A DNA stretch of 63,893 nucleotides, counting the filler, from Octopus bimaculoides (lineage: Eukaryota): assembly GCF_001194135.2 (NCBI RefSeq). It is 6 parts of 5 records of this genome, joined end to end, with 100 filler letters (N's around TTAATTAATTAA, not from the genome) between each part and the next. Parts side by side here need not be neighbours in the genome. Positions count along the whole stretch, not along the records: positions 1 to 31,576 come from NC_068981.1; positions 31,677 to 36,298 come from NC_068981.1; positions 36,399 to 58,142 come from NC_068983.1; 3 more parts are not named here. One strand, given 5' to 3'. Position 1 is the first letter of the stretch; each line of letters opens with the position of its first letter. Under the pieces are notes generated by a model. That model was given only the letters and a program-made list of their open reading frames with translations. It had not been told where the DNA came from and did not search any database. Shown piece by piece: positions 750-56,198 of the stretch. The position numbers were made by a program, and so were the translations under genes.

Positions 750-1135
750 AATGATACATTTCTAAATCTCTCAGAGAGACTTAAGCAGTAGTGACACGAT
801 AAAGTAGTTGTATACTGTCAACTTAACGTGACAGTCCCAATAAGGGAATCATACTACTGCTATTTAGCCCTAGGAAGATGCACTGCTTCCTGTCGGCCTT
901 GATACATTTCCTGTGTCCTTATGTTTACGAGGGGGAGACAAGCACCTCCACCCAGCCAAGCCTGCATTCAGGGACATGTTTCTGAGTTTTTGCTCGTCAT
1001 CAGCCTGGAGTAGCATGACCCGCTGGCTGAAGATGCCTGTCTAGCTCTCGTAAACATATAATAATTCTAGTGAAACACATTCACTGATTACAAAATTAGA
1101 AATGATACATTTCTAAATCTCTCAGAGATTTAAGC
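750..1135 (-). mobile_element. Retrozyme-like non-autonomous unit (351-bp monomer plus partial terminal direct repeat) carrying a hammerhead ribozyme
   Basis: Exact 28-bp direct repeat aatgatacatttctaaatctctcagaga at 750-777 and 1101-1128, extending to ttaagc with a small indel. No ORF. HHR core on the minus strand at 967-1009. Homologous to 31916-32342 and 15502-15623. Confidence 0.75.
967..1009 (-). ncRNA. Minimal type I hammerhead ribozyme motif
   Basis: Minus strand reads tccagg-CTGATGA-c-gag-caaaaa-ctc-a-GAAA-catg-TC-cctgaa. Stem I cagg/cctg, stem II gag/ctc, palindromic stem III ACAUGU, GUC cleavage triplet. C.A mismatch at the base of stem II. Confidence 0.8.
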
Positions 1136-1811
1136 TGGTTTAATCTGAAACTTGGAAATTTTGATCATATATGCATCTATGAGCAGGTCTTTGCAGCCAG
1201 TTCCATTGACTATTTTCGTGCGTCTATGCATTTCAAAGATGACTTTTGTCCATAAATTCATCCATTTTTAGCGCCCACTATTCCCAGAAGGTTTCATGAG
1301 GTAGATTTCTCAGTCACTCCCTCAATAGGGTCCTATCAGAAGGGACTATCATTAAAATTTCCGGAAGGGTTTCCAAGTATGACAAACTGAGAATATAAAT
1401 AACATCCTACCATCTCCTTCTTGTTCGACCCCTACGTTGCCTGGTGTTCGGCTTGGCGTGAAGTATGTCTCGCAAGCCTCTGCTGCGAGATTTTCATCAC
1501 GTGTCCTTAGGACTGGTACTATGACCTCTAAACGCAATGAAGTAGCGGCTCGACTTAGACAGATTCCTTCAATTTTTGCTTAACGAATCAACGACACAAA
1601 ATTAGCAGCCTTCACCAATGTATCACACTGACTGGCGCATGTGCACGTGCACACACAAACGCACGCACGCACACATACACACACACACACACACACCATC
1701 ATCATTATGCACGTACTCCATGCTTGCTTGAGTCGGATGGAATTTGCTGAGGTGGCTTTTCTACGGCCGACAGAGTGCCACACCTATACAAAATAGAAAT
1801 ACATACTACAG

Positions 1812-1968
1812 ACTTCCATCAGTTTCTATCTACCAAATTCACCTATAAGGTTTTGGTCAGCCCAGTGCCATAGCAGAAGACACTTGCCTAAAATGCCACG
1901 CAGTGGAGCCGAGCTTAGACTCATGTAGTTTTGAAGTAAGCTTCTTACCACTTACCCACGCCTGCGCC
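1812..1968 (-). mobile_element. SINE family B, 5' half (tRNA-like head and CORE-like body)
   Basis: Matches the 5' half of the 30497-30894 copy (agaagacacttgcc..tgccacgcagtgg..cttaccac..cacgcctgcgcc). Confidence 0.8.
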
Positions 1969-2043
1969 ACATATATTCATAATGTCAAGCTTATTATAAT
2001 CTTCGAATGGACTCCGATTTAGTCAGACTTGTCAACTAATTTT

Positions 2044-2241
2044 ATGAACAATTTCATGCAGACACATCAACTTTTCTCATGAACTAAGTTTTATACAGAC
2101 GCATTAATTATTTCCGTGAACCATGTCTTAAGCAGACACATTAATTATTCTGTTGAACAATGTTGCAGAGAGACACAAACCATTCTCATGAACAATGTCT
2201 CATACAGGATACATTAATTATTCTCATGAGCAATACCTCAT
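2044..2241. repeat. Degenerate minisatellite, ~37-41 bp unit, about 5 copies
   Basis: Repeated atgaacaatgtc..cagacacattaattattctc motif. Confidence 0.75.
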
Positions 2242-2739
2242 TAAGATATTTTTAATTTAGCTCATATCCTACATCTCATGTTATTATTCCCACTCATAAA
2301 CGTTCTTCGCTAACATGATCAATGTTTTAGGCAAGTAAAGTATAGTTTTGTAAGAATTTTCTTGTATTGCTACGAACTGCTTCTTTTCTGCTTTCGATTT
2401 TTGTTCAAGTTTTATGCCTCACATTTTGCTATGATACATTGCAATTGAATTATTTCACTGTGTGTAAATATATTTTGTCATCACCCTCTCTAAATACAGG
2501 TCATCTTGTATCATCAGCCACACTATGATTATTGATATATGTGTGTGTGTTTGAATGCGTGTGTGTGTATATATGTGTGCGTGACAAACAAAAATTAAAT
2601 GCTTTGAGAACCTTACCCTGGAATAAAGAAAATGAATATTCGTTTTTTTTTTACCTGTACATTTACTGAGTCCTATTTGTCTATATTCCCGTGTTTTAAT
2701 TTGTGATCTATACAGAGTTATGTGTTGTGTTAAGAACAC

Positions 2740-3680
2740 TCTGGTTGCCCAATGTAGTTCCCTAAAAATACAGAGTTTAACTGTTTTCAGATGTATTTAT
2801 CCGCTTCAGCTTTATTTCTTCGTTTTGTCTTAGTTCTAAGGTATTGAATTTCTATTATCGATGAAGGATGGTGGGTAATTCCTATCAGGGAATGTATTCT
2901 TTAATTCTTGAAGTCTTATGTTACGGGCGTTTTCATCAGGTAAAATTGGGCAGAACCTTTTGAATGGGTTATAAGGGACAAGTACTGAGGTGTGCATCAG
3001 ATGGCATGAATTGAAAGCAAGATAATTGTTTGAAGTCTAGATTCATAGTAAATGTTCATCTTTGTTTGGTTGTTGACATACTTTATTAGAATAGCTACAA
3101 ATAGGAGTTAATCTTGGCTATATTCCAAAGCGAATTGCATATTTTTGTTAATTCCATTAAGGAGTTGTTTGAATTCTTTTACTTTCTGTACGTTTTCCTC
3201 AATCGTCGAAGTACACAGACAGTTTTTTTTTTATATATTTAAACAAAGAGTTCGAATATTTTTGCAAGGATTTTTCGTACATCGTAATCTCTAGATAGCT
3301 CAACACGATTTGCATAGGAGGGGACTGTTTTCGTCCCCATCACAGTCACAGATTTCTATTGATAAATGTTGTCATTAGATGCAAAGCAGTTTTTCTCTAG
3401 AGGAAATTTTAGTCCTAGTATTATAAATTCATTTTCTATGTGTTGTCGATAAATTACCCAAACAGAACTCAATGGCCTCAATTTCAAAATAGTGAGGAAC
3501 ATACATTATGTCCTCATATATTACCCCTCGAAAGATGAAGAGCAGTAACAACACTAAGGAGACTTTAACCTAAATTCTGCTCTAGTTTCTTTATTATTCA
3601 TAAAAATTAGTTAAATCCATGCAAACTCCCACAGTTCTTAATAACTACGATAGAGCAATTACTTTAACATGTATTTGTAA
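2740..3680 (-). mobile_element. Penelope-like element reverse transcriptase relic (frameshifted, with stops)
   Basis: Manual minus-strand translation gives PHYFEIEAIEFC, FIILGLKF, VMGTKTVP (cf. TAMGTKxAP) and KEFKQLLNGINKNMQFALEYSQ, followed by LFVAILIK..NIYY (cf. LPFLDILI..TDIYYK). These are in the order expected for PLE RT. Confidence 0.8.
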
Positions 3681-4502: not shown

Positions 4503-4782
4503 TATATGTCGGTGTTTTACCAAATATATTTCCAGGTAGATGCCATGATACGAGTTAACTCGCATCATTGGACAAATAAAAGGCTCTTTGGTGTTTCCAC
4601 AACACACTTACAATATTAGTTCCAGACGCCAGTTCATTTTAAGCGTGTTACAATAAAATAGACCCCTACGAGTATGCTCGTACCTGGTAAAATTTTATTG
4701 ATTGCCAACTACGAAATAACTCGTAGTTGGCAGTCAACGTGTTAATTAATGCTTTTTTCTCTGTTTTCCATGCCTTTTGCCA

Positions 4783-5163
4783 TTTTACTCGTCTCAATCA
4801 TTAAACTGCGGCCATGCTAGAGTACCACCTTGGGAGATTTTAGTCGAACGAGCCGGCCCGAGTATACTTTAAGCCTGATACTTATTGCGTCTGTCTTTAT
4901 TGCCGAACCGCAATGTTGCAGGGGACGTAAACACAGCAACACCGGTTGTCAAGCGGTGGGGCGGGGTGGACAAACAGGCACATAGAAACACACACACACA
5001 CAATGGGCTTCTTTCAGTTTCCGTTTGACAAATCCACTCACAAAGCTTTTGTCGGTTCAGGGTTATAATAAAAAGTACTTTCACAAGGTGACACGCTGTG
5101 GGACCGAACTCAGAACTATGTAGTTTGGAAGCAAACTTCTTATCACATAGCCACGCACGCACC
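4783..5163 (-). mobile_element. SINE family B, near full length
   Basis: Colinear with 30497-30894 from tail to tRNA-like head, with internal (CA)n. Confidence 0.85.
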
Positions 5164-5793
5164 TGTTGGTATTAACTACCCTAACAACAACAACAACAAC
5201 AACATCACTACCTTCACTTAATTTCCTACCTTAGAGAATGCAACATATACGAAATACATGGCGAAATACGACGCAAGGAAAGCAAATCTTTATCCTATTA
5301 ATTGCTTGGTCCCTCTACTTTATTAATTGTCATCACTCGTGCAACCACGTGTCACCACTAATCTGAGTTCTTTGTAAAATAAAAGGTGAGTTTGATTCGC
5401 TAATTTCCAGTTTAATTCTAGGTATTAACGTTCTTCTACCTGTCAAAGACCCACTTATTAACAATCCTTCAATTTAACCACGATGTAATTTAACATTTTC
5501 TGCTCTAGTTCCTTTACAAAGGCCTCGCTAAATTGATGTGTTACGTAACGGCATTACAACCAATCCTATTTTAAGATTTAATCTATGCTATGGCATTTCT
5601 GGTGGAGTAAATGCGTTTAGTAATTCTAATGTTGCATTCATTATTTGGTTGCTTGTGGCAAACTGTTTTATCTAAGCTAAAATACGTCTGGATATTTCCC
5701 GGTTGTAGTTCGAAAACCTTTTATTTTGTAGCTGTTAGCTTTCCTTGAGATTGTCGCGGGAGAGGCATTTGTTGACCGGTCTGTGGTGATGAC

Positions 5794-6006
5794 GGCGGCG
5801 AGCTGGCAGAATCGTTAGCACACCGGGCGAAATGCTTAGCAGTATTTCGTCTACCGCTACGTTCTGAGTTCAAATTCCACCGAGTTCGAATTTGCCTTTC
5901 ATCGTTTCGGGGTCGATAAAATAAGTACCAGTTGTGTGCTTGGGTCGATCTCATTGACTGGCCTCTGCCCCCTAAATTTCAGGTTTTGGGCCTATAATAG
6001 AAAGGA
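5794..6006 (+). mobile_element. tRNA-derived SINE family A (central domain resembling Meta/MESC)
   Basis: ggcggcgagctggcagaatcgttagc head, gagttcaaattcc B-box-like motif, ttgcctttcatc.tttcggggtcgataaaataagtaccagtt central block. The domain name is from recall, not a search. Confidence 0.85.
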
Positions 6007-6565: not shown

Positions 6566-7554
6566 AGATTATAACCTGAATGTTTAAATTTTAAAACTCA
6601 AATAGTTGACGTATAACATTAATATATTTACCTAATATCGACCGAAGGTGGTTGTTGTTAGTAAACATCAATACTAAATATGGTAATATTTAGTCAAGCA
6701 CCTCTGACAACAACTTGTGCTGAGTGTGCTTTTTCTAAAGAAAAGGTTAGCTCTTCTTGCCTCAAATTATCACCAGAACACTCGAGAGCTTTCCGGAGAA
6801 AGCTTATAAAAAGTACCTGAGATTCAACTCTTTGGGTGGCAACATTTGGTTTCTTGATAAGACAATTTTCATCCCTCAGCTTCTCAAATGAAAGCTATTC
6901 ACGCTAACACTAACAGGCGTGTTCCCCTTTTTTGCCTGAGGTTTACAATTTATCGATTATAAACATAGTAAAATGAAATATAAAGTGTTATCAATAAAAC
7001 ATGATTAAAAATAATTTCCTTTTTTTCCTTTTATTTATAATTCAACACTATTATAATATGCACTTCAACAATTTGAAAAAAGACAGCGGGAGTTCTTACA
7101 TGCGAGTAGTACACACGATTGCTTCCCTTAGTTGCTTCACGAAAAATAGATTTTATCACATAAATTTAATACATGAAGACAGAGATACTTTGTCATGATG
7201 TAAGGCTAATAGCTGCCTAATTCCTGTTATAATCTGCATGGTTGAATGCAGATTTGCCAAGTTCTTTCATAGTTTTTGTGGTTTCATATTTTGAGTTTAG
7301 CAATAATGTTTGAAATGCTGCCAGGAATGAGATCGTTCAAGGTATCTATCGATAATAGAGATATCGATACCAGTGATGCCTTGAAGACAGTCACTGATAG
7401 CATGGATAGTAGAAGATATTATGAATTTTTCATCTCAGAAATGTTACATCTTGATCTTTTAAGAAACGGGATTGCCAAGAGGTAGGAAATATATTACAAG
7501 AGCTTATATCGATTAACGATATAAGTTCTATATCTTACCTACACTTTAACTACT

Positions 7555-7912
7555 GGCGTTCCGTCAGTTACGACGACGAAGGTTCCAGTTCATCCGAAAA
7601 ACGGTCACAGCTTGCTCATGAATTTAATGTGCAAGTGGCTGAGCACTCCACAGACACGTGTACCCTTAACTTAGTTCTCAGAGAGATTCAGCATGACACA
7701 GAACGTGACAAGGCTGGCCCTTTGAATTACAGGTACAGCTCATTTTTGCCAACTGAGTGGACTGGAGCAACATGAAATAAAGTGTCTTGCTCAAGGACAC
7801 AACGCACCGCCGGGAATCGAACTCACGAATTCGATTCCCAGCAGCGCGTTTCTTAACAGATCAAAATATAGAAATTTCTTACGAAATTCACTAACCGCTA
7901 AACCACGCGCCT
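7555..7912 (-). mobile_element. tRNA-derived SINE family C, head interrupted by a small foldback
   Basis: Body gtgtccttgagcaagacactttatttc (minus strand). Tail shared with 17090-17474 and 35241-35497. Palindrome gggaatcgaa/ttcgattccc at 7812-7839. Confidence 0.8.
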
Positions 7913-7929
7913 TGTGTAGCTTAAACAAG

Positions 7930-8336
7930 TTCTTTTATTCTTTTATTGATTTCTGTCATTTTGATTGCGGCCATGCTGTAGCACCACCTTTAATCAAACA
8001 AATCGACTCTCAGGACTTATTCCTTGTAAGACTAAGTACTTATTCTATCGCTCTCTTTTTTCGAACCGCTAGGTTACCGGGTCGTAAAAACACCAACATC
8101 GGTTGTCAAGCGATATTGGTGGGGGACAAACACAGACACACAAACACACAAACACACACACACACATATATATACGATGGGCCTCTTTCAGTTTCCATCT
8201 ACCAAATCCACTCACAAGGCGTTGGTCGGCCCGAGGCCATAATAGAAGACAATTGCCCAGGTGCCACACGGTGGGACTGAACCTGGAACCATGTGAATGG
8301 GAATCAAGCTTTTTACCACACATCCATTCCTGCACC
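7930..8336 (-). mobile_element. SINE family B, full length
   Basis: Complete colinear match to the other family B copies; internal (CA)n(TA)n. Confidence 0.9.
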
Positions 8337-8483
8337 TATGTACCTACTATCTGCGGTAATTTAAATAAGTTCTATAATATCTGACCACGTATCAGTAATT
8401 TATCAGAATATCTTTCAATACAGCACTTCGAGCTGATGCTTCAAAGATGAGAAATGGTAATATCTGTTATCTCATTAATCATC

Positions 8484-8680: not shown

Positions 8681-8849
8681 GAGGTAAGAAACAAATACAA
8701 ATACATACACTTATATACATATATATATATATAGATATATGTAGATATATATAGATATATAAACAACGTGTTTCCATACAATTTCCAATGCTGGCATCCT
8801 AACATCACAACTACATCATCCTGGAGCATCAATATAAAGCAACTACATT

Positions 8850-10800
8850 CCAGAAGTTCTTCTTTTTCTCTTCTTCTCAACTGTATCTATCACCACAGCG
8901 ATTATCATTCATTCTTCATTATTCAGGTTATTAGAATTTAACTGAACAACATGGAAGTTTTTGTCCGTTTATGCCTCAAAATCATTCTAGATTCTATTAA
9001 TATTATTCTTTGACAATTTGTTCTATTTTCGATTAAAACTTCATTTATTGAATGAAGTGTGAAGGGAAAATCCTTCTTCTTCTCTGTTCTGTTCTCTATA
9101 AAAAATATCTTCAATCGTTTGTTCTGTAAAAGAATTCCATATTTGAATTGCATTTTGAGGATTACAAAAGCATAAAAAACTGCAAACATTTCTCTAAGGT
9201 GTGATGACATTCTTAATGTTGAAGCCTGCTTTAAAATGTTTTCAAACTCATTGTCGTTTTGCAATAATCTGAGCCGTAAGCAATCATAAAGATGCATCTT
9301 TAAAAGTTGGCATAATTTCTCAATTATTCATATTTTCTTGATCCTGGAACATGAAGCAAAAATAGACGGAAATGAAATTTTTTAGCATCTTTCAAACTCA
9401 TCGGATTTTTTAAGACAACAACAACAATAATAATAATAATAATATGATTGCTTTATCCGACTGTCCATTTCTTTTGTCACATTCATTGAACACATCACAT
9501 AAAAGAATTTTAATTTTCGTGAGCTTGAACCAAACGTCTTTTGTATTTCTCCGAAGATATTTGGAAATCTTTCCATGCATGTTCCAATTTCCAAAGAGAA
9601 GCAAAATTATTAATACTACATGACTCATGCATCATGGATTTTTTCACAAGACCCTGCAATGGAATATCTTTATTGGGAATTTCTGCAGATATTAATGTCC
9701 ATGTTCTCTACATTTTAAATTTTATTTCTTCCGGAACACTAATCACCAGGTCACAGTAAGACAGGTCTTTTTTTATGAAATTCAACAACAGGAGCTTCTG
9801 TCAAGCCAATTATATGTTTCTTCTTGATATCCTTTAAGGCAAATATTATAAATCCTTGCAAATATATTCTAGTGATTTTCTATTATTTCATTCTGCCACA
9901 AGTCATTGATGTCTCTTGGACATCTCAGGTTATTTATGTCGATTAAAAAAAGACCTAGTTTCCCATATTTTGCTGCTATTTGCATAGAATCTTAGAGAAC
10001 ACTGGTGACCGCTCTATAAACTTTCTTGAAATGAAAAAAGAAAGATGGTAATATAATTGAAACTATTGATTATAAATCATTTTTTATTGCATCGAGGTGG
10101 TCCATTAACTCACTATACTCTTTCTCATGACTCTGGGATTAATTATTCCTAATTAACTACAAATGACATTTTTCAATTCGATGCATTCTCTCAGTCTTAT
10201 TTTCTCTGCTTCTCTTTTGCTCATTCTTGTGATTATTCCCTCTGATTTTGTCGTAACAATTGCTCTACCTTCTTGTACTCCCTCTCTAATTAACTCAGGT
10301 CATGTATCACTGTCTATAAATCAGCATCCACTAAGTACGACTGCAAAAAGATTTCTTCTCGTATGGATATTATTGAGTCGTTATTTAAATGTCAGCCCTA
10401 AATTAGAAATTATAGCATATTCATCCGGGTATGAATATGTGTGCTGTGAGATGAATGTTGCTGGATTTCGTTGTGTCATCCAAATTCACCGCGAGAAGAT
10501 CGAAATAGATAACACATTAAACACAGATGGAAGGAAAACGGGAATTCGTTTCGAAGTACATAATTGCAATTTCTTGCATAAATTCCAATATTCCTATTTT
10601 CAAGAGGTGCTCTCTTTTTGCCAATAAATATGGCAGATGTTTCACTATTGATTTTACTATGAGTTGTTAGAAAATTGTACCACCTTATTTTTGCATCTTG
10701 TCTATAATAAAGTTACTCTTTAAGAAGTGGAACATTGTCTCAGATTGTACGGGCCTATACTTTTTATTCCATCTAAATACTTTTGGATGAAACTGGACAT
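8850..10800 (-). mobile_element. Helitron Rep/helicase relic (multiple frameshifts)
   Basis: Minus-strand motifs in canonical order: LQSYLVDA (cf. FQQYxVDAY), IILPSF, DSMQIAAKYGKLGLF (cf. DAMAIVxKYGKPDLF), VVEFHKKR (cf. IEFQKRG), LISAEIPNKD..LVKKSMMHESC (cf. ISAEIPD..MIHGPC), LLQNDNEFENILKQASTLRMSSHLREMFA. Confidence 0.85.
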
Positions 10801-11642: not shown

Positions 11643-11790
11643 AAACACACACGAGTAAGCACATACAGGCAAACAAGGTGGAAAAAATAGTACTCGAACG
11701 CGAAAGATAGAGAATAATGCTTTTATTAAAGCTACAAAAACCATCACAAACTGTTACTCAGAGCTTCAACTGTTCGTCAGACAGTTGTGT
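11643..11790 (-). mobile_element. PLE-type terminal fragment with a damaged hammerhead
   Basis: Minus strand 11749-11786 reads aactgt-CTGACGA-acagtt-GAAG-ctctgag-TA-acagtt. Perfect 6-bp stem I, stem III CUC/GAG, GUA site. Stem II is lost and GAAA has become GAAG. Confidence 0.5.
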
Positions 11791-13300: not shown

Positions 13301-13536
13301 TACTACGACAAATTTCAATAATTCACATATGTGAGTGATTACATGTCCATGCATTGTTCCTTATTCCTTCGGCTGGCATCGCCTCCATCCACTAAACACT
13401 CCCCTCCCCCTCTCTCTCTCTCTCTTTGCTTGCCACTTCCCTCAGCATATCTCTTTTTCCTTCGACTGAATGGGGTTTCTATGGACACTACAGATATACG
13501 TTGGTACCAACATATCAATATTATGGATATATTTCC

Positions 13537-13750
13537 AAGGCAGCGAGATAGCAGAATCATGAGCACGCCAAGCAAAATGCTTAGCAGCATTTCGACAGTC
13601 GTTTCATTCTGAGTTCAAGTTCCGCCAAGATTGGCTTTGTGTGTCATCCTTTCGGGGTTTATAAAACAAATACCAGTTAATCACTGGGGTCGATGTAATC
13701 GACTGACCTGCTCTCCCAAAATTGCTGGCCTTGTGCCAAAATCTGAAGCC
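13537..13750 (+). mobile_element. SINE family A, diverged
   Basis: ggcagcgag..gcagaatc, aaatgcttagc, ttctgagttcaagttccgcc, catcctttcggggt, ctggggtcgatgtaatcgact. Confidence 0.8.
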
Positions 13751-15501: not shown

Positions 15502-15623
15502 AGTAAAGATTGTTTGCCAACATAACATGGCAGTCCTGGTTTAGGACGAATGTTACTGTAATTTAGCCCAGGAGACATCGTCTCCACTGGATATACGACA
15601 CGATCTGTGTCCTTATATTTTCG
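15502..15623 (-). mobile_element. Fragment of the retrozyme-like family
   Basis: agtaaagattgtttgccaacataacatggcagtcctggtttaggacgaatgttactg matches 31966-32088 closely. Confidence 0.75.
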
Positions 15624-16600: not shown

Positions 16601-16700
16601 AGGTGGCGTGGTTGGGTGGTAAGAAGTTTGCTTCACAACCACATAGCTCCGGGTTCAGTCCCACCTTGTAGGTGGATTTGGTGGACAGAAACTAGTCATA
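16601..16700 (+). mobile_element. SINE family B 5' fragment (internally deleted), host of a nested family A insertion
   Basis: ggcgtggttgggtggtaagaagtttgctt..accacat..ccgggttcagtcccac joined to ggatttggtggacagaaact. Confidence 0.75.
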
Positions 16701-21470: not shown

Positions 21471-23280
21471 ATTAATACGAATTAACATTGAATGCTTACA
21501 TAATTTTAATAGATTCGTATAATTTTATTTAATGTTTTAGAAAATATTTCCTGTTCTATCTAATTATATATATTATGTCATACGTAGTCTTATTCAATAT
21601 CTTAACTGATTTAATCTCTCATATATTTGATGTCTTATCTAATTTCATTGAATAGTTTAATTTTCAGTGAGTGACTCGCTAAAGTATATTTAATGTCCCC
21701 TGGAATTTTATTCAATGTATTACATAACTGCACATGATGTTGTTTAACCCAAGATACACAGATCAAGCAGACCGATGAAGAATAGCTTTCCAACAGTGAC
21801 CGTCATGTGTTTTTGTGTATCATTGACTTCATTTTCAATATATCCTTCTTTATTTAAGATAGTTTGCTGTGATTTGTAGAAAGTTTCGTTGGTATTTCTA
21901 GCAAGTGAAGCTCCTGTTTGGAGGCTGTTTTGTTGGCTCGTTCCTTACATAATTATATTTAAAGCTATTTTTAATTATATTCATTGACTTATCTAATTTT
22001 ACTGCTTTACTTCATTTTAAATTTCTTTCGTTTCATAAAGCTTGTCTTCAAAACTTCTTTGCGTGTTTGTTTGCCAATGATAAGACATTCAGTTGCTGGT
22101 GAGCTAAAGAGGAGCTTTTTCTGGCATGATCATTCGATCTCCTAAAAGTAGCAACCTAAAATTAAAACATGGTCTGGTTTTCACATTTTTTATTATGGTA
22201 TTTTAACATTAAAAAAAAAATATTTTGTAATGTTCATAAAGTTCAAATAGCACTTTCATACATTCGTAGTAATCATCAGATTTCAAAATGTATTTAACTG
22301 ACGGTTGAGTTTTTGACATCTGTAGTAAAGTGACTGACTTCTTCGTTTTAATACTTCTTAGAAGGCACCAACAAGCTGAATTTTTCGAATATGATTCTGA
22401 CCAATTCACATACAGCTCAAACGTAACGGTTTGTCAGGCGTACTGATATTACTAGCATAGATCCCGCCTTTATTTTAACCAATTAGCTTGCGGTTTACAT
22501 GTAATAGTTTTAGGAGTGAGCAAACTCATTTGGTTTCGATTGTTTTTATTTTTTATGTAATATGTTTATATTCATATTTTAGAGATATTTTTTAACCCAC
22601 GTCATTAACTGGTTGTTATATTTTTGTTGTTATTTCCGTTCAGAACAGGTTTGAACATTTTAATAAACCATTTTTCTTTTATATTTCTTCCAACCTCACT
22701 TGTGTCTTGTAGTTTATGGAAAAGAAAAAATTAGAAACAGTTCCTGACCACATGTTTCTATATATTCGCTCAGCGGAACTTGGCAAACATTGGTGTTGCG
22801 CATTTGTTGTCTGTAGACTTGTGAGTGTTCCAATAATGCATTCCCTGTCTCGCCAATATATAGGATCTCACAATTTGGGTACTAAATGCAGTAGATAAAA
22901 TTTATGCATTTACAGTTCATATCTGCATTTGTGAAAACCTGTCCATTTTTTGTTCTAATGGATCTACCAGTATGCACGTATTGACACGTTCCTCATCTGT
23001 TAACATTACACTTGGATACTGTCAATGTTTTATCCTATTTGTTCGTGTTGAATCTTGCCTTTGTTAATAGTTTCTTTAGATTATGTGGTTGCCTTTTGCT
23101 TAAGGTAAGTGTTTTATTAGTTATGTTTTTTTTAATTTTTCACTCTATCTATAGAGACAGTTAACAATGAAAATAACACACTGCTAACACAAAGGAATCC
23201 ATTGTATTGACTTATAAGTCTTTAATATACTCGGTCGTCTGTTGTGGTTGCAAAACGAAATATGGTGTCTCTGTTAGTAA

Positions 23281-25599: not shown

Positions 25600-26040
25600 T
25601 TAAACACATTCCGACCGTGACCACTTTGTTCAGACAGTTTGGAATCGTTTGCTTTTGTTGAGCCACAAAGTCAGCTCTAAATGGGTGGAAGTATGATCAA
25701 AGACAGTCTGCCAATTGTGGATGTACTGCAGAAAGTCACTAAACTATGATATTCATCTTGAGAAGCATCTCATATAAATGTACAGTGCTAAAAAAGCAGA
25801 GAAATGTAATGGTAGCAGATCTGGCAATTCTATCCAGCATTTGTGGTAGAATTGCCAAAGCTGGGATTTCTGCATACTTGCACATCATCAGTAGCAAGCA
25901 TCCACTATCAACTGCAGGCTTAGACAAATTTCACTTCTACCAATATAGAAAAACAGTGATATACAAATCATTGGTGTCACAGGTAGCTGGTAGACTGAGT
26001 AAAAATTTGATATTAGTGACAAATCCAGTACTACTATTGT
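25600..26040 (-). pseudogene. Possible hAT-family transposase relic
   Basis: IKFLLSLPATCDTNDLYITVF..NLSKPAVDSGCLLLMMCKY..ITFLCFFSTVHL loosely follows the hAT pattern FL..LP..TTxxDIF..LSKxxG..TDGA..M..HC..H; in-frame stops. Confidence 0.3.
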
Positions 26041-26084
26041 CACTAATAATGAATTCTGTTCTATATTTAAGAGATGAGGAATAA

Positions 26085-26297
26085 TGTACCTTATTCACAT
26101 TTTACAGATATTTGTCCTCGTCTTGTTTCAGCTGATATACCCTCCAGCCTTCATCAAGTGTCTTGGGGAAATTTCCAGCCTGGGTTCTTATTCCTAAGGT
26201 ATTTTTTGATGTTATTATTATTCAGGTCACTGCCTGGAATCAAACTCGGAATCTTGAGGTTAGCAGCCCGCGCTTTTAACCACAATGCCATATTCCC
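26085..26297 (-). mobile_element. tRNA-headed SINE with hammerhead-derived 3' half (cleavage site deleted)
   Basis: Minus strand: gggaata-TGGCATTGTGG (A box)..ct-gct-aa loop..GAGTTTGATTCC (B box)..(aat)n..caagacac-TTGATGA-a-ggctg-gagggtatat-cagct-GAAAC-aagacgaggac. 18 nt are lost between two aaac motifs relative to the plus copy. Confidence 0.8.
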
Positions 26298-26427
26298 GTG
26301 TGCTTATGGCGTAGGGGTTATACTGTCTTGCTTTCTATGTCCAAGTAGTCTGCTCTCTCTAATTAAATAAAAATTAATAAAATGTTTTCATTTCATAAAA
26401 TTCAAATCAATATATATTAACCACTGA

Positions 26428-26572
26428 TAATCACATCGAAAAGGTTCGAAATATCCCTAAGACACCTGATGAAAGCTGGAGGGTATATCAGCCGAAACGT
26501 TGTGTTAACAACAAACAAGATGAGGACAAATATCCGTCAAATGTAAATAATGTAAATAATGTGAATAATGAA
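26428..26572 (+). mobile_element. 5'-truncated copy of the same HHR-SINE with (tgtaaataa)n tail
   Basis: acatcgaaaa fused to ggttcgaaat (internal deletion), then HHR, aacaacaaacaagatgaggacaaatatc and about three 9-mer tail repeats. Confidence 0.8.
26461..26506 (+). ncRNA. Type I hammerhead ribozyme motif
   Basis: gacac-CTGATGA-a-agctg-gagggtatat-cagcc-GAAA-cg-TT-gtgtt. Stem I gacac/gtgtt, stem II gctg/cagc, palindromic AACGUU stem III, GUU site. A.C mismatch at the stem II base. Confidence 0.8.
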
Positions 26573-27529
26573 TTCTATTTATAACCATTTGATCTTTTCA
26601 AGATAGCTTATGTCAGACTCATATTCTCTGAGATGTCCTTTCTTTTCTTTTTAAAGAGAGTAAGAAATGATTTTGAGGAAGGTTAGTCTGCTTTATCTAG
26701 CCGGTTGAATTATCAGGTTTAGGGTTACTCAACGACCCTTAGAATTAGTTGCAGCTGTAATAGAGAAGGATAGATTTGTTTGATGTATGAGAGCAACACC
26801 TAGGAAGGAAATATTTGATTATTTCTTTACATTGTTAATTTGGAAACCCAAATCCCCAATCATCCCCAGAATTCCCACATCCAAAGATATTCACAAATTC
26901 GTAATTGAATTGCTACGAGTAAAAATACTGTTAAACAGTTGAGAGTCTACCTAGAACTCTTCTTACAACATTTGTATTCAGTTTACATTGAAATATAGAA
27001 TAATTGAATCATTTTACTGAGATGTTTCATAAAGTATTCACAGAACTCCCAATAGCAGTTGTAAGAAAAGAATGTCATCTGAATCACTAATGACAAAGAA
27101 ATTGTTATTGCTTGGTAGACCTGGATAATTCTTATTAACCCAAGGCATAGTTAAAAAAAACAAACCCAGTTTAAATGACATATTTGATTAGCAATTATGA
27201 TAAAAACCATACCATCTTTAATAGACACCAATCTGTTCTAAGACTTACACATAGCAGAGAATATATTGAAGCCGATGATCTGGTTGCTACATAGAACAGC
27301 CTCAGAGACTGCATTAAATATATTTCTTGTTACTCTCTGTCAGGACTTCCATCAGTCAAAGGTGGGTGGAATATAAAAAAAAATGAATAGAATGTTTAAA
27401 CCATGTTTTTTAAAGGAAATTCTTTATGCGTATCAAAATATTTTACTGTATATTACTATTTACAATTGTCCAATCGTAGAGAATATTCTGCTAGATGAGG
27501 GCGGGGAGGTAATAAAGTAACCAGTTAGA

Positions 27530-31095: not shown

Positions 31096-31576
31096 TCAGA
31101 GATATCTGCACTTAAATGCATACAAAACGATGAAACAATAATAATTAAACAAGCAGACAAAGTGGGTGCAATCGTTATCATGGATGTGGAATACTACAAG
31201 GATTCAGTTGAGGAACAACTAAAGGATACAACCTTCTATTGTGAAATACCCTCGAATATAGACCACCACATCATGAAGAAGATCAACCACCTAGTTTCTA
31301 AACACTACAAGTCACTCAGTGACAACGAAAGAAACTACATCACCAACTTCGAACCAAAACCCAGTAACTTTTACGGCTTACCCAAAATACATAAGTCAGA
31401 AGATATTCAACAGGCAGTAAAAGAACAAGGAAGTGAATACATAAAAGTGCTACATCCAAAAGATTTAAAACTTAGACCAATTATAGCTGGCCCAGTATGC
31501 CCTACTCACCGTCTAAGCAATTTCATCAACATTCTTTTAAAGCCACTATGTACGTACATACCCAGCTTCATTCGGG
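31096..31576 (+). mobile_element. Penelope-like element ORF fragment (N-terminal to RT core), open up to the gap
   Basis: SEISALKCIQNDETIIIKQADKVGAIVIMD..FYGLPKIHK..LRPIIAGPVCPTHRLSNFINILLKPL. The IIKxADKG, FYGLPKIHK and LRPI motifs are diagnostic of PLE RTs. No stops in 160 codons. Confidence 0.92.
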
Positions 31577-31691: not shown

Positions 31692-31862
31692 TACGTTTGC
31701 CATGATAGATCGCTGACCACTACACACATTTTTTTCTCTCCTTGCTTCTTTCTATGTTCCTTTCTGTTGAAGAGCATAGGCTCGAAACGTTAAAGATATT
31801 TTACTTCTCGAGCGTTATACTAATACATCCATTTGTTGTCTACACCACCTGTCTTCGTCTGT
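31692..31862 (+). mobile_element. PLE terminal (pseudo-LTR/UTR) segment with hammerhead motif
   Basis: 31760-31795 reads cttt-CTGtTGA-a-gagc-atag-gctc-GAAA-cg-TT-aaag (A6 to U lesion). Lies directly across a gap from the PLE ORF, on the same strand. Confidence 0.7.
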
Positions 31863-31915
31863 ATATATATATATGTGTATCTATATATATATTTGTATGT
31901 ATGTATGTATAAACA

Positions 31916-32342
31916 TTATTACTTCTAAATCTCTCAATGAGAGACATACAGTAACAGTACTTTAAAGTAAAGATTATTTGCCAACATAATGTGGCAGTCC
32001 TGGTTAGGACGAATGTTACTGTTATTCAACCCCAGCAAACATCGTCTCCAGCTGGCTATCAACATGCTATCTACGTCCTTATATTTTCGAACAAGGGAGT
32101 TTAATGTCCTCACTCAGCTCCAAAGCAATATCTGTGTGCCAATTGTCTGACGTTAATTTCTCTTCATCGGCATAGAATAACTGCTCGGCTACAGATGGCG
32201 ACACTAGATTCTTGTTCAAAACATGTATTTTCCAAAGTGACTGACACACAGTTACTGATGTCATAAATAGAAAATTTATTATTTCTAAATCTCTGAACGA
32301 GAAACATTCAGTAAGAGTACTATAGAGTAAAGATTATTTGCC
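31916..32342 (-). mobile_element. Retrozyme-like unit, second subfamily (360-bp monomer plus 67-bp terminal direct repeat)
   Basis: Direct repeats 31916-31982 and 32276-32342 (8 mismatches in 67 by eye). Colinear with 750-1135. Decayed HHR at 32131-32176 (tctatg-CCGATGA-a-gag..agac-aattg..cacaga). Confidence 0.7.
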
Positions 32343-46700: not shown

Positions 46701-47767
46701 TTTGTCTTTTATTGATTTCTGTCATTGGTATTTGGCTATACTGCTGCTCTATTTTGAATTACATCTAAGTAAGTTATAAAGCCTTTATTAGCTCAGATAA
46801 ATCCTTTTTAATTAAGAGTGTCGTTTCTTAATCTAGTGGTTATAGGTTCAATATCAGCGCATGCTATATGGTGAGTTTCTCCTACATTAACCTCAACACT
46901 ACAAAATCCACTTGAATGCAATTCAACAATTGGAGATTGTGCGCAAACTGTGCAGAAACTCTTTATTTGGATTATCGATGCCACTCTATGTAAAAGTTAC
47001 TATTACAAGTTTTAAAACAACAACTTGTCTCTTTTGTTGATTTTAGTAGCTTTCACTTTGTTGCATGCATTTATACAACGTGTGCAGTCGATTATAATTC
47101 TACCATTATCCCAACAATCACAGATATTCCAGTAAATTGGCGTTGGCACTGATGTTCATCTCCATCCATTCGTCGCTTACATCATAGTTTTTTTTTATGC
47201 AGTCTTCGTTAGCGTAGTGCAGCAATTCAAGACATGCACAATAAAGAAAAGAGAAGGGAGGAAAATTGGATGTCGTGTTTAGTGCATAACATTGTTGACT
47301 TACAAATTACAGAGAATAAGAGAAGTTAAGTCTTATGAGTTGGAAAATCAAATGTGAAAGTGGTACAAGGCAGTCCATCTTTGCAGTAGCAGTTTAAAGG
47401 AAGAACGATATGATATTGTCACAGAATTTCTTGAGAGAGTGAAAATGGTATTGCCTTTATCCAAGCATGGTAGGTAGCCTTTGTTTGCATATAGTCTAGG
47501 CTATCTGAACTCAAAGCAGCAACACCGTCCTTGACGTAGAAGCAGTCCACCATAGTGGTCTTCATATGTAATTTGTTCTTGCTGGGGGTATGTGTGTATG
47601 TACATTCATATATGTACATACACACATATATACTCGCACGCACACAAACAGAAAACTATGCATATGTGTGTGTGTGTGTGTGTGTCTGTGTGCATGTGGG
47701 TGTGTGTGGTGTATCTGTGTGTGTATACGTGTGCCTTTAGACGCTTATGTTGTTCGGAAAATCATTC
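43762..47767. repeat. Long-range inverted repeat pair (arms about 43762-43920 and 47600-47767)
   Basis: gaatgattttccgaacaccataagcgtctaaaggca versus tgcctttagacgcttatgttgttcggaaaatcattc (1 mismatch in 36), plus shared tactcgcacgcacacaaacagaaa. Confidence 0.75.
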
Positions 47768-49303: not shown

Positions 49304-50249
49304 AGAGAATTATATATATATATGTTTCAAATTTTGGTATAAAGGCAGCAATTGTTCAATTGTTCAGATATTTGAGAAAGCTTTGAAACACTAACATCGC
49401 TGTTAGTGATTGCTTTAAAATATTTGATTTCCTCGAAACTTTTCTGGGCGTGTGTAGGAAGGAGAGTGAGTATTTTCACTTTGGTGACACATATAAGCTG
49501 TGATTAAATTAGAAGTGAAGTAGAGATCCGTGCAACTATATCTAGCATTCAAACCATTAATAGCAATGCTAAAATTGAGAGGTAAATGTAAAGCAAAACA
49601 AAATACAAAAGTTTAGTGTTAACTACTTTCAGTAACAAATTCTTTCTGTCTATCAATGACATAAAGATGGGTGGCAGCGACAATAATACCAACCGCAACA
49701 ACAACAGCGGCAGAAATAACATCAACAACGTCTACTACAATAACGACAAATATGGGAAGTTCAGCAACAGAAGTATCGTAGCAGAGCGAAATATTAACGA
49801 CCACTGGAATACAGACAGTGAATTAAAATTATTAACAGCATCAACAATAGCGAATGCGAACAAATCTTATCTGCAACAAAAGACGATATTGAATGAATGA
49901 AAGCATTATCAACAGTAACAAAACGACGCCAAAGAAAGAAAAACCTTAACAGCAACCAAGGAAGAACAATTGAAATTAGGAAAGTAGCAGTAGTTGCAAA
50001 GGTATCCTCAGTGCGTTAACCAGAGCGTGCACCGCTGGCACTACCACACAATAAATTTTGAGAAAACGATGTCCGCCATCTACAGCTGACAGCGATTCTA
50101 TGTGCATGTGTGTCACTCACGCAGTTAATGTAAGAAATCTCGTTCATTTTCAGATATTACCAAACTCTCAGCGATGACAATTGTTTCTTCACAAGGGAAA
50201 CTTCAGATGTAAAGTTAGAGTTAGAGCTATGATTCTATTACCGGTCATG

Positions 50250-51720
50250 CTGAGGATACAATGTGAAAGCATTTGCATTTCGCAGTTTAAATGTGGGCAA
50301 ATCATAGAGCCAGATGAAGACAAAATTGAGACAACTGTGAAATAATCTATATCAAATCGATAAACGTCCAATTCGGTTCCCTTGGTGAGCTTTTTAATAA
50401 TCCTGAAAGCATTCATCTGAACCATTTTCACAAGACGTGATGAAATGTGAGTTGTGGTGGGAAGCAGAAACATCAACTATTACGCATACCTTAACACCAG
50501 ACACGAGAAAACCTATGCCTTCTTTTTCCCAAAGTACTACGAGCTACTGCAGCCGTTTGGGCATAATTTTACAGCACAGCTAACACCAGGTTTCCAACAA
50601 TTGCTTCACTCCAGCAAAAGACGAACACAGGCATGCTAAATCTTATCTTGGATCGCACACCTTCCCATTCAGTCCGTTATGATTCAGAGATTGTATTACA
50701 TAGCGAATATGCACCGGCGAGTGATCATTTTCAGTGCAAGAGAGAATAGCCACGCCACGAATTTCCGGTCATGTCTTAAGACTGGATAACTCAAAGACAT
50801 AGCTGGAAACATCATAACCTCTGACATACTCATTTTACTGCTCACAATTTCCGTTATTAACGCAATAACGCAAGAAAATGAAACAAACTACAAAAGCAGC
50901 AACAATAACCAAACTCAGAGCAATGCAGGAAGGAAGGCAAAACCAAGAAAATTTTCAAACACTAAACCACAGCTAAAATGCCGGAAAAAGAACTCTAAAT
51001 GCAACAATACAAACAGCTAGACACACAGTAACCTACACATAGTAACAATTTCATTGTTTTAAATAGAAGAAACAGTGAAATGGAGGAATATATTTTGCAT
51101 GGCATGCAGAAATACAAAGACAAAATATAGGGAGTGCCTATCACTGGAAGATACAACACTGAAGACGTCTTACAACGTCTGGTTTAAGGACGCAATCACT
51201 TTGAATGTATACAAAGGCCATAGAAACCCTTCCTTCTGATCGAGCTGGTTGACGAACAATAGTGTGAATGGAGTGAAAGCTTTTGAGGAGGCCAGGCTGA
51301 AACATGCAAGACTCAAGAGAGATATAAAGAAGAATTTTGCGATCAAGAAGGTAATCTCAGTGATTATTTGTGTGCCAAGTTTGTGATAGACCATGCCTTT
51401 CTTTCGCTGGGCTCATATCTCTTTTGCGGACCCATGAAAACCGAACCTCCACCAACTACTCTACCTATATATGTATGCAGACCTTTCAATGCTGTGTATG
51501 CCATAATCTTTGCAAATCTTACGAAGGCCTCAAAGAGCATTTTAAGATTCACAATGATCAGAACTTAACTGCGGCTCATAATGGTCCAGATCAGACATAC
51601 AATCTTTGTGGGCGTCTTTTCAGTATATCATCTGGTTTAAAAAACCACATCGGACGCGATGAAGGATCTCAGGTGTAAGTAGAAGCGGTGGTCAGACTCT
51701 GCATAAGGAGTAGACAACAA
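50250..51720 (+). mobile_element. Internally deleted RTE-clade LINE (endonuclease remnant plus C-terminus with C2H2 zinc fingers)
   Basis: EYAPASDH (APE SDH-like motif) near 50705-50730. IETLPSDRAG*RTIV/NGVKAFEEARLKHARLKR from 51220 (RTE C-terminal pattern). Then FQCCVCHNLCKSYEGLKEHFKIH and a degenerate second finger. The 5' part is less certain than the 3' part. Confidence 0.7.
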
Positions 51721-52458: not shown

Positions 52459-52675
52459 AGGTGGCGAACTGTCAGAATTGTTAGTATGCCGGATAAACAT
52501 TTTTGACGGCATTTGGTCCATCTTTACGTTCTGAGTTCAAATTCCACCGATATCGACTTTGCGTTTAAGCCATTTAGATTCGATGAAATATAATACCAGT
52601 TGAGTACTGGGGTCAATGTAATCAACTAGCCAACTTTCCAAATTTTCAGGCCTTCTGTCTCTAGTAGGAAGTATT
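52459..52675 (+). mobile_element. SINE family A, diverged, followed by (ATT)n-like tract
   Basis: aggtggcgaactgtcagaattgttag..ttctgagttcaaattccaccga..taccagttgagtactggggtcaatgtaatc. Confidence 0.8.
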
Positions 52676-55600
52676 AATGTTATCATTATTGGTGTTGTTA
52701 TTCTTATAATCATCATCAACATAATTAATATCGTTGTTTTTGTTATTATTTTCATTATTATTGTAATTAATATTATCATTACCTCATTAAATGTAATTAT
52801 TCTGAAATTTGCATGACATCTATTTTAAATAGATATGCTTTGTTTGAATTTATTCGATAATATACATTAAATTTCTCACTCTTATTCACCAATATTTCAT
52901 TCCATTAACCTTCCATGTTTAATAAGAAGAATAGTAAAATCTGCCAGAAGACTTATATTGCTAATACCTTTATAAACGCTATCGTGAAAGAAGCTGCTTC
53001 TCACCCCTTTCTTTAGTTTGATTATATTTCTATTAATGCCAAGTCGCCAATAAAAGCTGAAATTTTCTATACTAGAATTCTTTTTTTGTAATATAACTAG
53101 TTCTAAATGAGATTCAGTTATATCACTAGTAACGTTAATTTCTATTGTAAACTTCATATTCCATAAATTACCATAAAATATCTTCAACAGTCATTGATAA
53201 GAAGCTCACATATAGCGTTTCTAGAAAACATTTAAGTCTAAATATTTCGATGTAACTTACTCTTAATATGTAGCATAGAAAGTAATCTTCCAACATTATA
53301 TAGATTGCATAACTGATTAATGTGTAAATAACATGCAAGGTTAACTCTCTTCGTAAACAGATCTACAATGGAAAGGCACCTCTAGCCGCAATTCTTCTCG
53401 GTTACTTTATATCGAGTAAACGGAAATATATTCTATCATAGTTTACTCGTATACGTAAATATTCTCGTATTGTTAACGTAAAGCAGAACCGAGTTCATGT
53501 GATTTTGTGACAAATGCAAATGTAACCTAATCTGTGTGGGCTATGAATCCCTCCGGCGCTCGCTGTGACCAAGAATTCGATTTACTAAGTCACCAATCTA
53601 GATCTGCCTTTCTAAATATAATATTTTTATAAACCAAGATATAAAACATACGATTTAATGGGGTGAGTAATCGCATGCACTGACATTGTGTACAAGTTTG
53701 ATTCCTTCAAGCCACGATGTACGTAAGAGGGGGAAAATGTATATGTTTGTTTTTTCAAGGCCACTAGTAAGAAATGTAAGCAACTCCCAAAAATACATGA
53801 AATGAAATCGTTGATTGAATAAAGAAACTTTATATTATCATACGCACTGACATGACACATAGGCAATCAAGTCGTGCAAACCTACATATAAGTTTGTTTC
53901 TGAACATTTTGGGAAAAGAAACACGATTGACACCATATTGGTAAGTATTATTTGCCGACAAAACAGTAAGTTATATGCTATTGGGCATATGGTGGTGTCT
54001 TCAGATTTTAATTACTAAAAATAACTTGTTTCTCTGTCCGATAACCGTAGCCAGCAAAACCTACTTTGCGTTGAACAATAACGTCAGACATTGCAGAGTA
54101 TGCAATGAATTGTTTTGTACTCATACCATGAAATGTTTTGAGTATTCGTGAGAAACTAGGCGTATGTATTTTCAAAGCTTACTTGAAGCTACTGTATACA
54201 TCAGGCTTCCGTTCAATAGAAAAGTTTGCTTGCTACACATGTCTTGTGATTTGGTTCTGAAATATATCATCATCACATGTTTTAGAGTTTGCAGTAGGTC
54301 TATGCGTGCAAGGAAATCTTTATCACTGTTGGGTATAGATGACTCGATGATCTTGCTAAGTTATGTGTCACCGTTGGAGCCATTAGGAAGGTAGTTTGCG
54401 TTTTATTCATGGTTATGTATCCAGTCTTATTTGCATTTCCATGCAAAACAACTTTACCTTGAACAGCCTCAAGTAGTATGAAGTTGTAAAGGCATGCTCA
54501 TTACTTGATCACTGTCTGCGAGATACAAGCTTTCCTATTCCTTAAACACTTTTGTTTGATGGTGAGGTCATTAAATAGGAGGTAGACCGTAACAATCTCA
54601 TGGAGGAAAGGGTGAATGGTCCTACCTTGCGTAATCATAATGTTACTGCAAAGTAGATTAACTGGAGATTCAGCACCTTGTAGGGGCTTTCGTACTGCAT
54701 GGTAGAGATGTTAGCTTATCTCCAATACTAAATTTCGATCAGTAAAATATGGCATTTCTGTTGACCCTTATACAGACACACACACACATACACACACACA
54801 TACATACATACATACATNNNNNNNNNNNNNNNNNNNNNNNNNNNNNNNNNNNNNNNNNNNNNNNNNNNNNNNNNNNNNNNNNNNNNNNNNNNNNNNNNNN
54901 NNNNNNNNNNNNNNNNNNNNNNNNNNNNNNNNNNNNNNNNNNNNNNNNNNNNNNNNNNNNNNNNNNNNNNNNNNNNNNNNNNNNNNNNNNNNNNNNNNNN
55001 NNNNNNNNNNNNNNNNNNNNNNNNNNNNNNNNNNNNNNNNNNNNNNNNNNNNNNNNNNNNNNNNNNNNNNNNNNNNNNNNNNNNNNNNNNNNNNNNNNNN
55101 NNNNNNNNNNNNNNNNNNNNNNNNNNNNNNNNNNNNNNNNNNNNNNNNNNNNNNNNNNNNNNNNNNNNNNNNNNNNNNNNNNNNNNNNNNNNNNNNNNNN
55201 NNNNNNNNNNNNNNNNNNNNNNNNNNNNNNNNNNNNNNNNNNNNNNNNNNNNNNNNNNNNNNNNNNNNNNNNNNNNNNNNNNNNNNNNNNNNNNNNNNNN
55301 NNNNNNNNNNNNNNNNNNNNNNNNNNNNNNNNNNNNNNNNNNNNNNNNNNNNNNNNNNNNNNNNNNNNNNNNNNNNNNNNNNNNNNNNNNNNNNNNNNNN
55401 NNNNNNNNNNNNNNNNNNNNNNNNNNNNNNNNNNNNNNNNNNNNNNNNNNNNNNNNNNNNNNNNNNNNNNNNNNNNNNNNNNNNNNNNNNNNNNNNNNNN
55501 NNNNNNNNNNNNNNNNNNNNNNNNNNNNNNNNNNNNNNNNNNNNNNNNNNNNNNNNNNNNNNNNNNNNNNNNNNNNNNNNNNNNNNNNNNNNNNNNNNNN

Positions 55601-55804
55601 NNNNNNNNNNNNNNNNNNNNNNNNNNNNNNNNNNNNNNNNNNNNNNNNNNNNNNNNNNNNNNNNNNNNNNNNNNNNNNNNNNNNNNNNNNNNNNNNNNNN
55701 NNNNNNNNNNNNNNNNNNNNNNNNNNNNNNNNNNNNNNNNNNNNNNNNNNNNNNNCCTTTTCAAATTAAATAATCAATCAATTCTAATAAACGAATTATA
55801 AAAT

Positions 55805-55945
55805 TAACAGAAAGCAAGGGAACGTGCACAAGGATTGTATTAGCCTGACGCTCGGTGGAAACAGAGAGAGAGTTTAACGTTTCGAGCATAACTCTTCGTC
55901 GAATTGGAGAAAGGGAAAAGTCCAAAAAAGAAAAAAAAATACAAT
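55805..55945 (-). mobile_element. PLE-type terminal fragment with a decayed hammerhead
   Basis: Minus strand 55871-55906 reads caat-TCGACGA-a-gagt-tat-gctc-GAAA-cg-TT-aaact. Same layout as 31760-31795; C3/U4 altered and stem I poor. Confidence 0.5.
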
Positions 55946-56149
55946 CGTCAACAGCACGTGTGTAGTTACATTGCAAAGTATTTCGTTAGAAAATCTCAAT
56001 AAGAAAATAGTAAACTATACTGAGAAGTAATGTTTATCTCCACAGCAATATGGCTTTTAATTGCAGGCAGAGTTATCGGGGCAATCTGCACCCGGTATAT
56101 ACTTCAAGCTGGTGATCGAACCCCTAGCATCTTTTAGCAGATGATGGGA

Positions 56150-56198
56150 TCACCAGTCGGAACGGTTTCGAGCTATTTGTGCCCATCTTCAGTGGTGA
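56150..56198 (-). ncRNA. Type I hammerhead-like motif
   Basis: tcacca-CTGAAGA-t-gggc-acaaata-gctc-GAAA-ccgttccgac-tggtga. Perfect 6-bp stem I, 4-bp stem II, intact core. The stem III/cleavage region is irregular. Confidence 0.6.

Follow-up and report, generated by a model that had tools for sequence, protein, structure and literature searches.

Hammerhead-bearing repeat families in a window of the Octopus bimaculoides genome, with a candidate tRNA-headed passenger of Penelope-like elements

Minimal type I hammerhead ribozymes occur in the pseudo-long terminal repeats (pLTRs) of metazoan Penelope-like elements (PLEs) and cleave weakly as dimers, with limpet and oyster examples given in the supplement (Cervera and de la Pena 2014, PMC4209133). 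A PLE origin has been proposed for the metazoan retrozymes (bioRxiv 10.64898/2026.07.22.740005). Insertions of Penelope carry an inverted pLTR, a tail of ~31 bp on one end, a target site duplication (TSD) of 8-10 bp and captured host DNA (PMC3846280), and for mobilisation in trans the pLTRs are enough (PMC3846280; PMC8557442). A reverse transcriptase (RT) with a CX2-5CxxC linker and a GIY-YIG domain is the layout of Neptune and Nematis elements (PMC8557442).

Here we describe hammerhead motifs in a window of 63,893 nucleotides (the whole stretch of DNA analysed, filler included) from Octopus bimaculoides. The window is animal-type DNA of 33% GC, with many gaps and microsatellites. An earlier reading of the same stretch (hereafter the original prediction) had listed eight hammerhead cores as parts of a single window-wide system. 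The motifs are mostly real but worn, and they do not form one system; they are independently inserted copies of separate families. Our preferred explanation, to which we give a probability of roughly 0.7, is that the sites are worn copies of at least three repeat families together with broken PLEs, and that Penelope enzymes of Neptune type, supplied by other loci of the genome, copied the non-coding families. Three families are distinguished by homology and copies, as had been anticipated: A (retrozyme-like), B (tRNA-headed) and C (a minimal hammerhead on a short stump).

A squid genome paper counted 235 hammerhead matches. Active Penelope families are included in an O. vulgaris repeat annotation, which never mentions ribozymes in the portions available. 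No octopus hammerhead family was found in our literature searches, which included parts of PMC5786205, PMC4758252, PMC10886601 and PMC6155905. Hammerheads were nevertheless to be expected in octopus, because many animals, molluscs among them, are known to have them in retrozymes and at the ends of PLEs, and they were counted in squid. Most of what follows is biology already known, with the host being new for the PLE-type hammerheads and the retrozyme. The least ordinary element is the tRNA-headed one with a PLE footprint, a variant that we did not find in print.

A tRNA-headed repeat and its insertion footprint

Family B is represented by two arms joined head to head and enclosed by a TSD (Table 1). 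The two copies of the TSD match at 13 of 13 positions, and this 13-mer was found just twice in the window, flanking both hammerhead motifs. Arm 2 resumes at the (TAA)n region after the patch of host DNA and stops before the tail. Its hammerhead (26461-26506, + strand) is complete except for G10.1, with a predicted cut after 26501. In the arm 1 motif (26126-26160, - strand) C3 is changed, and helix III, the cleavage site and the 3′ strand of stem I are deleted. The 3′ part of the family matches the PLE hammerhead model described below. An inverted copy, a tail on one end and a short TSD, the footprint of endonuclease-bearing (EN+) PLEs, are thus all present at 26045-26576. No convincing TSD was seen around the other sites. 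The patch (26324-26425, from 28294-28395) is probably a repair patch in a palindrome or the product of a template switch during insertion.

The family evidence for A and B comes from public reads and contigs aligned to two short stretches of the window. Summed contig depth in family B was 1e6 to 5e6, against 30-170 in the flanks and patch (run X1). Several defects are mended by the majority letters. In the hammerheads these are 26157, where C3 stands in 97% of the depth of X1 and in 96% of the X21 reads, and 26474, where about 95% of reads and of contig depth have G10.1; in the head they are 26242 (85%) for the B box, and 26284 (89%) and 26286 (71%) for the A box. In 13-14 DNA contigs of run X4, positions 26301 and 26304 likewise have the letters that make the central inverted repeat complete. 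Contigs of other copies cover the hammerhead to the T-arm, and the linker to the head. Loose ends fell into two classes, at 26553-26562 and about 27-34 nt farther out. By its majority letters, family B is therefore a high-copy family in which the body follows a tRNA-like head that contains A and B boxes, and the claim of a tRNA-headed family held. The head may resemble tRNA-Thr. A relaxed ARAGORN call of the head was discounted, three spurious genes having been called alongside. Differences between RNA and DNA shares were not read as editing, as they were overall not of the A-to-I type. An exact 28-mer of the family was absent from metagenome contigs.

We lean towards regarding family B as a true short interspersed element (SINE) whose partner is a Neptune-type Penelope instead of a long interspersed element (LINE). 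It would consist of a tRNA-derived RNA polymerase III (Pol III) head and a pLTR with a hammerhead, be present in thousands of copies or more, and insert in two arms, head to head, with the tail and TSD of a PLE. The direct footprint at 26045-26576 makes mobilisation by PLEs the best explanation. A Pol III RNA of about 260 nt would be bound via its pLTR-like 3′ part; the GIY-YIG domain would make a staggered cut on which the RT would prime, and at the end of the template the cDNA would fold back or switch template, giving the second arm. The predicted cut lies 55-90 nt inside the 3′ ends, so the end of family B is not produced by its ribozyme. This ribozyme would be nearly silent as a monomer, and because a cut would remove the last 55-90 nt, copies would have to derive from uncut or re-joined RNA. 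No PLE-mobilised SINE, nor a SINE-like element with a PLE footprint, was found in the portions of the literature searched, Repbase and Dfam lying outside that search; family B may already be catalogued as a SINE.

Hammerhead motifs, the retrozyme-like family and the Penelope-like relics

All eight predicted strings are present, but their quality is uneven and most single copies are damaged. A strict descriptor in type I order found no perfect-core match in the window, and its two one-mismatch matches compare with a mean of 0.9 in 12 shuffles, which is no enrichment. A relaxed descriptor, whose score was written and tuned after the sites were known, gave seven matches at score >=4 (shuffle mean 1.8; seven reached by 3 of 710 shuffles) and three at score >=6 (reached by 0 of 710). 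An excess over shuffled sequence was thus seen with the post hoc descriptor and not with the strict one. The seven matches include five of the eight sites, and 26126, 32131 and 55871 were not recovered at all. A motif at 20598-20647 (- strand) matches the descriptor only. The Rfam search of the window gave no hammerhead match at E<=5; its only matches, microsatellite-driven miRNA matches, were rejected.

Two covariance models, R1 and R2, were built from 12 and 7 motifs of PLE-relative loci in other animals only, and their E-values are rough. They recovered four of the eight sites at E<0.01 and two additional motifs (22242 and 25852), six window motifs in all (Table 1). That models built from PLEs alone find them bears out the assignment to the PLE minimal type. 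The sites at 11749, 26126 and 32131 were listed by neither model, 11749 being absent even at E<=10. We counted 26126, 32131 and 55871 as members of hammerhead families because they are homologous to better copies. The site at 11749 is unconfirmed. A covariation score on the training alignment was discounted as circular, the motifs having been picked for pairing. Folding of isolated motifs was in most cases no better than for shuffles and was uninformative.

CUGANGA, GAAA and NUH stand in type I order in copies 967 and 26461 and in the majorities of families A and B, so the family consensus keeps the core as foreseen. The core is incomplete in copies 26126, 31760, 32131, 55871, 56150 and 11749, and judging from their sequences most single window copies could probably not cleave. 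Of the family C copies, 31760-31795 (+) is complete except for A6 and 55871-55906 (-) has two core changes. The motif at 56150-56198 (-) has its core and stems I and II and no NUH at the junction; just downstream, a short inverted repeat (56104-56153) could compete with its stem I. At 11749-11786 (-) stem II is absent and GAAG replaces GAAA. A PLE 3′ hammerhead without any stem II is also present in one of the PLE relatives (L027:1862-1893), and stem II is very short in the relatives L002 and L030. Two copies of the end of a short repeat (43762-43932 and 47588-47767) lie within (TA)n/(TG)n tracts and are possibly another PLE-type stump. An unpaired base before stem II and a palindromic, loop-less helix III are found together at 26461, 31760 and 55871 (AACGUU) and at 967 (ACAUGU). 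Both features had been pointed out in the original prediction; neither is novel (PMC4209133), 967 has an unpaired base on both sides of stem II, and the CAAUUG at 32131 is out of register as helix III.

The family A copies at 750-1132 and 31908-32342 align end to end, each being one unit plus a short overlap. The hammerhead at 967-1009 (-) has a perfect core, five of six pairs in stem I and a stem II of 3 bp with a C.A mismatch at its base. The homologous site 32131-32176 (-) has its core destroyed. The 351-nt unit folds with a z of -5.4, the hammerhead sitting at the tip of a long stem, and the older copy with a z of -2.2. Summed contig depth, which is not copy number, was 5e4 to 1e6 in the unit and 60 in its right flank. 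The core is free of all 40 listed differences among copies (29 lesser differences exist besides those listed). Stem I pair 1004/972 changes in 44% and 30% of the DNA (G-C to A-U) and pair 1008/968 in 56% and 33%, the C.A of the window copy becoming U-A or C-G; both pairs thus vary on both sides with matching shares, which are pooled and not single-molecule linkage. DNA contigs contain head-to-tail joints (1105 to 755, 1128 to 781), and 17 RNA reads (6, 4 and 7 in three runs) join 1100 back to 750. With a non-coding unit within 150-450 nt, one type I hammerhead and tandem copies, family A has the hallmarks of a retrozyme. By anatomy it looks like a non-LTR retrozyme, a high-copy unit of ~350 nt occurring head-to-tail in DNA. 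Its tandem transcripts would be cut by dimeric hammerheads into monomers, and these could be closed into circles by a ligase of the host, a route that has been shown for the retrozymes of mussel and axolotl.

The predicted PLE RT/GIY-YIG relics were found by tblastn, which with two query sets gave three PLE pieces in the window and none further. The protein P0005 has RVT_1 and GIY-YIG, and full-length relatives have an RT, a CX2-5CxxC linker and, at the C terminus, a GIY-YIG domain, an arrangement that is broken in the window at 22635-23139. Domain layout suggests that the relics are of Neptune/Nematis type, the two not being separated by a tree. About 350 nt downstream of the GIY-YIG relic, on the same strand, lies the hammerhead at 22242-22286, absent from the original prediction and likely the relic's own pLTR ribozyme. 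This is the only direct link between an open reading frame (ORF) and a ribozyme in the window. The proposed use of PLE machinery stands on the footprint of family B; the window relics are not supported as the mobiliser, two having stops or frameshifts and the third being a fragment cut by a gap. A link between the RT at 31096 and the hammerhead at 31758 was left undecided, as the two are separated by an assembly gap and a (TA)n tract, and in most of the closest relatives the hammerhead is of the other subtype.

We gathered 116 loci encoding relatives of the window RT, 59 of them with a match reaching residue 600 and >=300 nt downstream, some being of the same family or the same assembly. A sense hammerhead lies within 1.2 kb downstream of the ORF match in 24 of the 59 and an antisense one in none; the extra base is present in 17 of the 24. 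The distance from cut to pLTR end gave no value in these relatives, which lie in long tandems. ORF candidates at 29850-30430, 53900-54780, 8800-10000 and 50150-51700 had no Pfam and no PLE match, and no PLE relatives were found in viral contigs. An O. bimaculoides gene model for exocyst component 1 (P0091) contains a PLE RT piece 88% like 31132-31575 (55% of the query), probably a mis-annotation or exonisation. Contigs filed under bacterial genomes (L078-L116) have animal-type PLE ORFs, some with 3′ hammerheads, and are likely host contamination.

Other repeats were also recorded. A short mariner-type relic (36891-37764) has inverted ends and a match to the Mos1 helix-turn-helix. At least three other abundant SINE-like families gave no hammerhead match by R1 or R2. 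Copies of the first are at 195-506, 4774-5164, 7925-8341, 29390-29771, 30494-30899, 39007-39236 and 59272-59484, of the second at 5794-5992, 13527-13747, 16700-16879, 52459-52705, 59571-59806 and 61414-61624, and of the third at 7552-7737, 17096-17276 and 35238-35423. A repeat of ~230 nt resembling a miniature inverted-repeat transposable element occurs in direct and inverted pairs (23729-23958, 24230-24463, 63011-63477, 28576-28679).

Table 1. Hammerhead motifs, repeat copies and Penelope-like pieces in the window, in positions of the whole stretch
Feature	Positions	Strand	Remarks
Family A unit, 351-nt period, 28-nt terminal direct repeat	750..1132	-	750-777 = 1101-1128
Family A hammerhead, type I, predicted cut after 973	967..1009	-	R2 E 0.005
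Family A fragment without hammerhead	15502..15623	-	85% to 31966-32089
Family A older copy, 360-nt period, 75-nt repeat; core-destroyed remnant 32131-32176	31908..32342	-	
Family B left TSD, 13 bp	26045..26057	.	identical to 26564-26576
Family B arm 1	26058..26297	-	tRNA-like head ~26222-26297, then (TAA)n and a linker; hammerhead at 26126-26165 broken; 3′ part with tail
Family B first 21 nt of arm 2	26300..26320	+	head-to-head with arm 1 across 2-nt spacer
Host-DNA patch, 102 nt, replacing most of arm 2 head	26324..26425	+	96% to 28294-28395; low depth
Family B rest of arm 2, ends without tail	26426..26563	+	near-intact minimal hammerhead 26460-26507, R1 E 3.6e-8 (at 26460)
Family B right TSD, 13 bp	26564..26576	.	
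Family C minimal hammerhead, short stump, U-rich upstream, between (TA)n tracts	31758..31797	+	R1 E 4.3e-5; aligned with 55871 copy
Family C second, more worn copy	55871..55906	-	homology to 31760; R1 only E 7.5 (at 55876)
Hammerhead-like motif, fourth family, without NUH	56150..56198	-	R1 E 0.005
Hammerhead-like motif without stem II, unconfirmed	11749..11786	-	second-best descriptor score
Hammerhead-like motif without paired helix III	25852..25897	-	R2 E 0.003
Neptune-type PLE ORF 3′ end, broken; CxxC linker remnant and GIY-YIG	22635..23139	-	57% to P0005, E 7e-45, stops
Hammerhead downstream of 22635-23139 ORF	22242..22286	-	R2 E 0.006; U.U at stem II base
PLE RT fragment, decayed	2854..3500	-	stops and frameshifts
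Neptune-type PLE RT, N-terminal part, open, cut by assembly gap	31096..31575	+	66% to P0003, E 2e-63

Competing explanations

We suggest that the non-coding families would have been mobilised in trans by a Neptune-type RT and endonuclease encoded elsewhere in the genome. Several observations weigh against this. The family B footprint is resolved at one locus only, and default ARAGORN and Rfam did not call the tRNA head in the window copy. Of the 114 bases aligned between the arms 16 (14%) are different, with two deletions besides, whereas only 4 of 102 bases set the patch apart from its source; the simplest reading of this contrast is an old fold-back insertion that was patched later. Such a history leaves unexplained that the listed departures from the majority are mostly on arm 1. 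RNA reads of families A and B are equal on both strands, and 90% of those from family B continue into unlike sequence. Fragmented RNA-seq, which is no test of cleavage, showed no pile-up of ends at the predicted cut site in either family, nor of starts at the head of family B. A blastn search of the window elements against the 116 PLE loci of other animals gave no match, and in the comparison with these loci no autonomous octopus PLE with the 3′ end of any family was seen. The read and contig checks covered families A and B only.

A more active picture, in which several families yield abundant circular RNAs, seems doubtful to us. Hammerhead cleavage, Pol III transcription and circles are all predictions. 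The 17 RNA reads in three runs and the good fold of the family A unit agree with circles, but these joints are no proof of them, because the same kind of joint stands in DNA contigs and tandem copies suffice. Most window copies also have broken cores, and the head-to-head arms of family B place their hammerheads on opposite strands.

It is improbable that every motif is the truncated 3′ end (a solo pLTR) of an autonomous PLE and that the tRNA-like head came to lie there by chance or through one isolated fusion. Truncated PLEs do commonly leave debris of this kind, as single minimal hammerheads or as close pairs on opposite strands (PMC4209133), and a solo pLTR fits 22242 and probably family C and 56150. 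In family B, however, depth is continuous and very high from the hammerhead into the T-arm region, the stretch between head and linker is covered by other contigs, and the joint of the two heads occurs repeatedly. In family A, the joints in DNA and in RNA keep to a fixed period of 351 nt.

We give slightly less credence still to family B being an ordinary LINE-mobilised SINE with a captured PLE end, its fold-back and TSD having arisen from two insertions or from repair. SINE tails are normally LINE-derived (PMC5786205), and the 14% distance between the arms and the host-DNA patch in one of them speak in favour of this reading. A single TSD nevertheless surrounds both arms, both begin at the first base of the head, the 2-nt spacer recurs in other copies, and the two end classes lie one tail length apart.

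That AT-rich repeats match the motifs merely by chance, as the lack of strict-descriptor enrichment, of Rfam matches and of folding better than shuffles in most isolated motifs might suggest, is very improbable given that independent models reach E 4e-8 and family majorities mend defects at exactly the conserved positions; the read and contig majorities refute it for families A and B, and it may still hold for 11749 and 25852.

Comparison with described systems

If family B is what we suggest, it adds a new pairing of SINE and helper and offers a very large natural data set on the unsolved integration mechanism of PLEs. SINE partners in the literature examined are LINEs, and PLE mobilisation of retrozymes has been argued from co-occurrence and sequence relationship. 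With a passenger that is short, very abundant, of fixed length and cleanly joined, the priming, fold-back and tail formation of PLEs could be counted directly, and such a passenger would be a minimal substrate for in vitro tests of PLE RT and endonuclease.

The window motifs share with the hammerheads of metazoan PLEs (PMC4209133) the unpaired base between 9 and 10.1, the G10.1-C11.1 pair, the palindromic 15.2-16.2, the U-rich upstream sequence, the many families per genome, the occurrence mostly as single copies, and opposite-strand pairs 100-700 bp apart. Octopus is absent from the matches in the supplement file searched, and no tRNA-headed carrier is described in the portions available. With the non-LTR retrozymes of Metazoa (PMC7229834; bioRxiv 10.64898/2026.07.22.740005) family A shares a non-coding unit of 350-360 nt, one type I hammerhead and tandem copies. 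It differs in its dispersed copies of a monomer plus overlap, and its cleavage and circles are predictions. The C.A of family A resembles the mismatch at the base of helix II in axolotl HHR_Amex2 (PMC7229834). It is also comparable to the U.U that the PLE relatives L003, L009 and L078 and the 22242 motif have at this place in stem II.

EN+ PLE insertions of the Neptune clade (PMC3846280, PMC8557442) share with family B the inverted 5′ copy, the short TSD, the capture of host DNA and a tail of 30-40 nt on one end, and these PLEs have the CX2-5CxxC linker found in relatives of the window relics. Family B differs from them in having no ORF and in starting with a tRNA-like head. Closest to family B are the Schistosoma elements Sm-alpha and Sj-alpha, in which a Pol III-type promoter is followed by a type I hammerhead (PMC6765202; PMC8490949). 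Sm-alpha is described in tandem repeats and has a fast canonical ribozyme, whereas family B has a minimal ribozyme of PLE type and stands in head-to-head arms with a PLE tail and a TSD.

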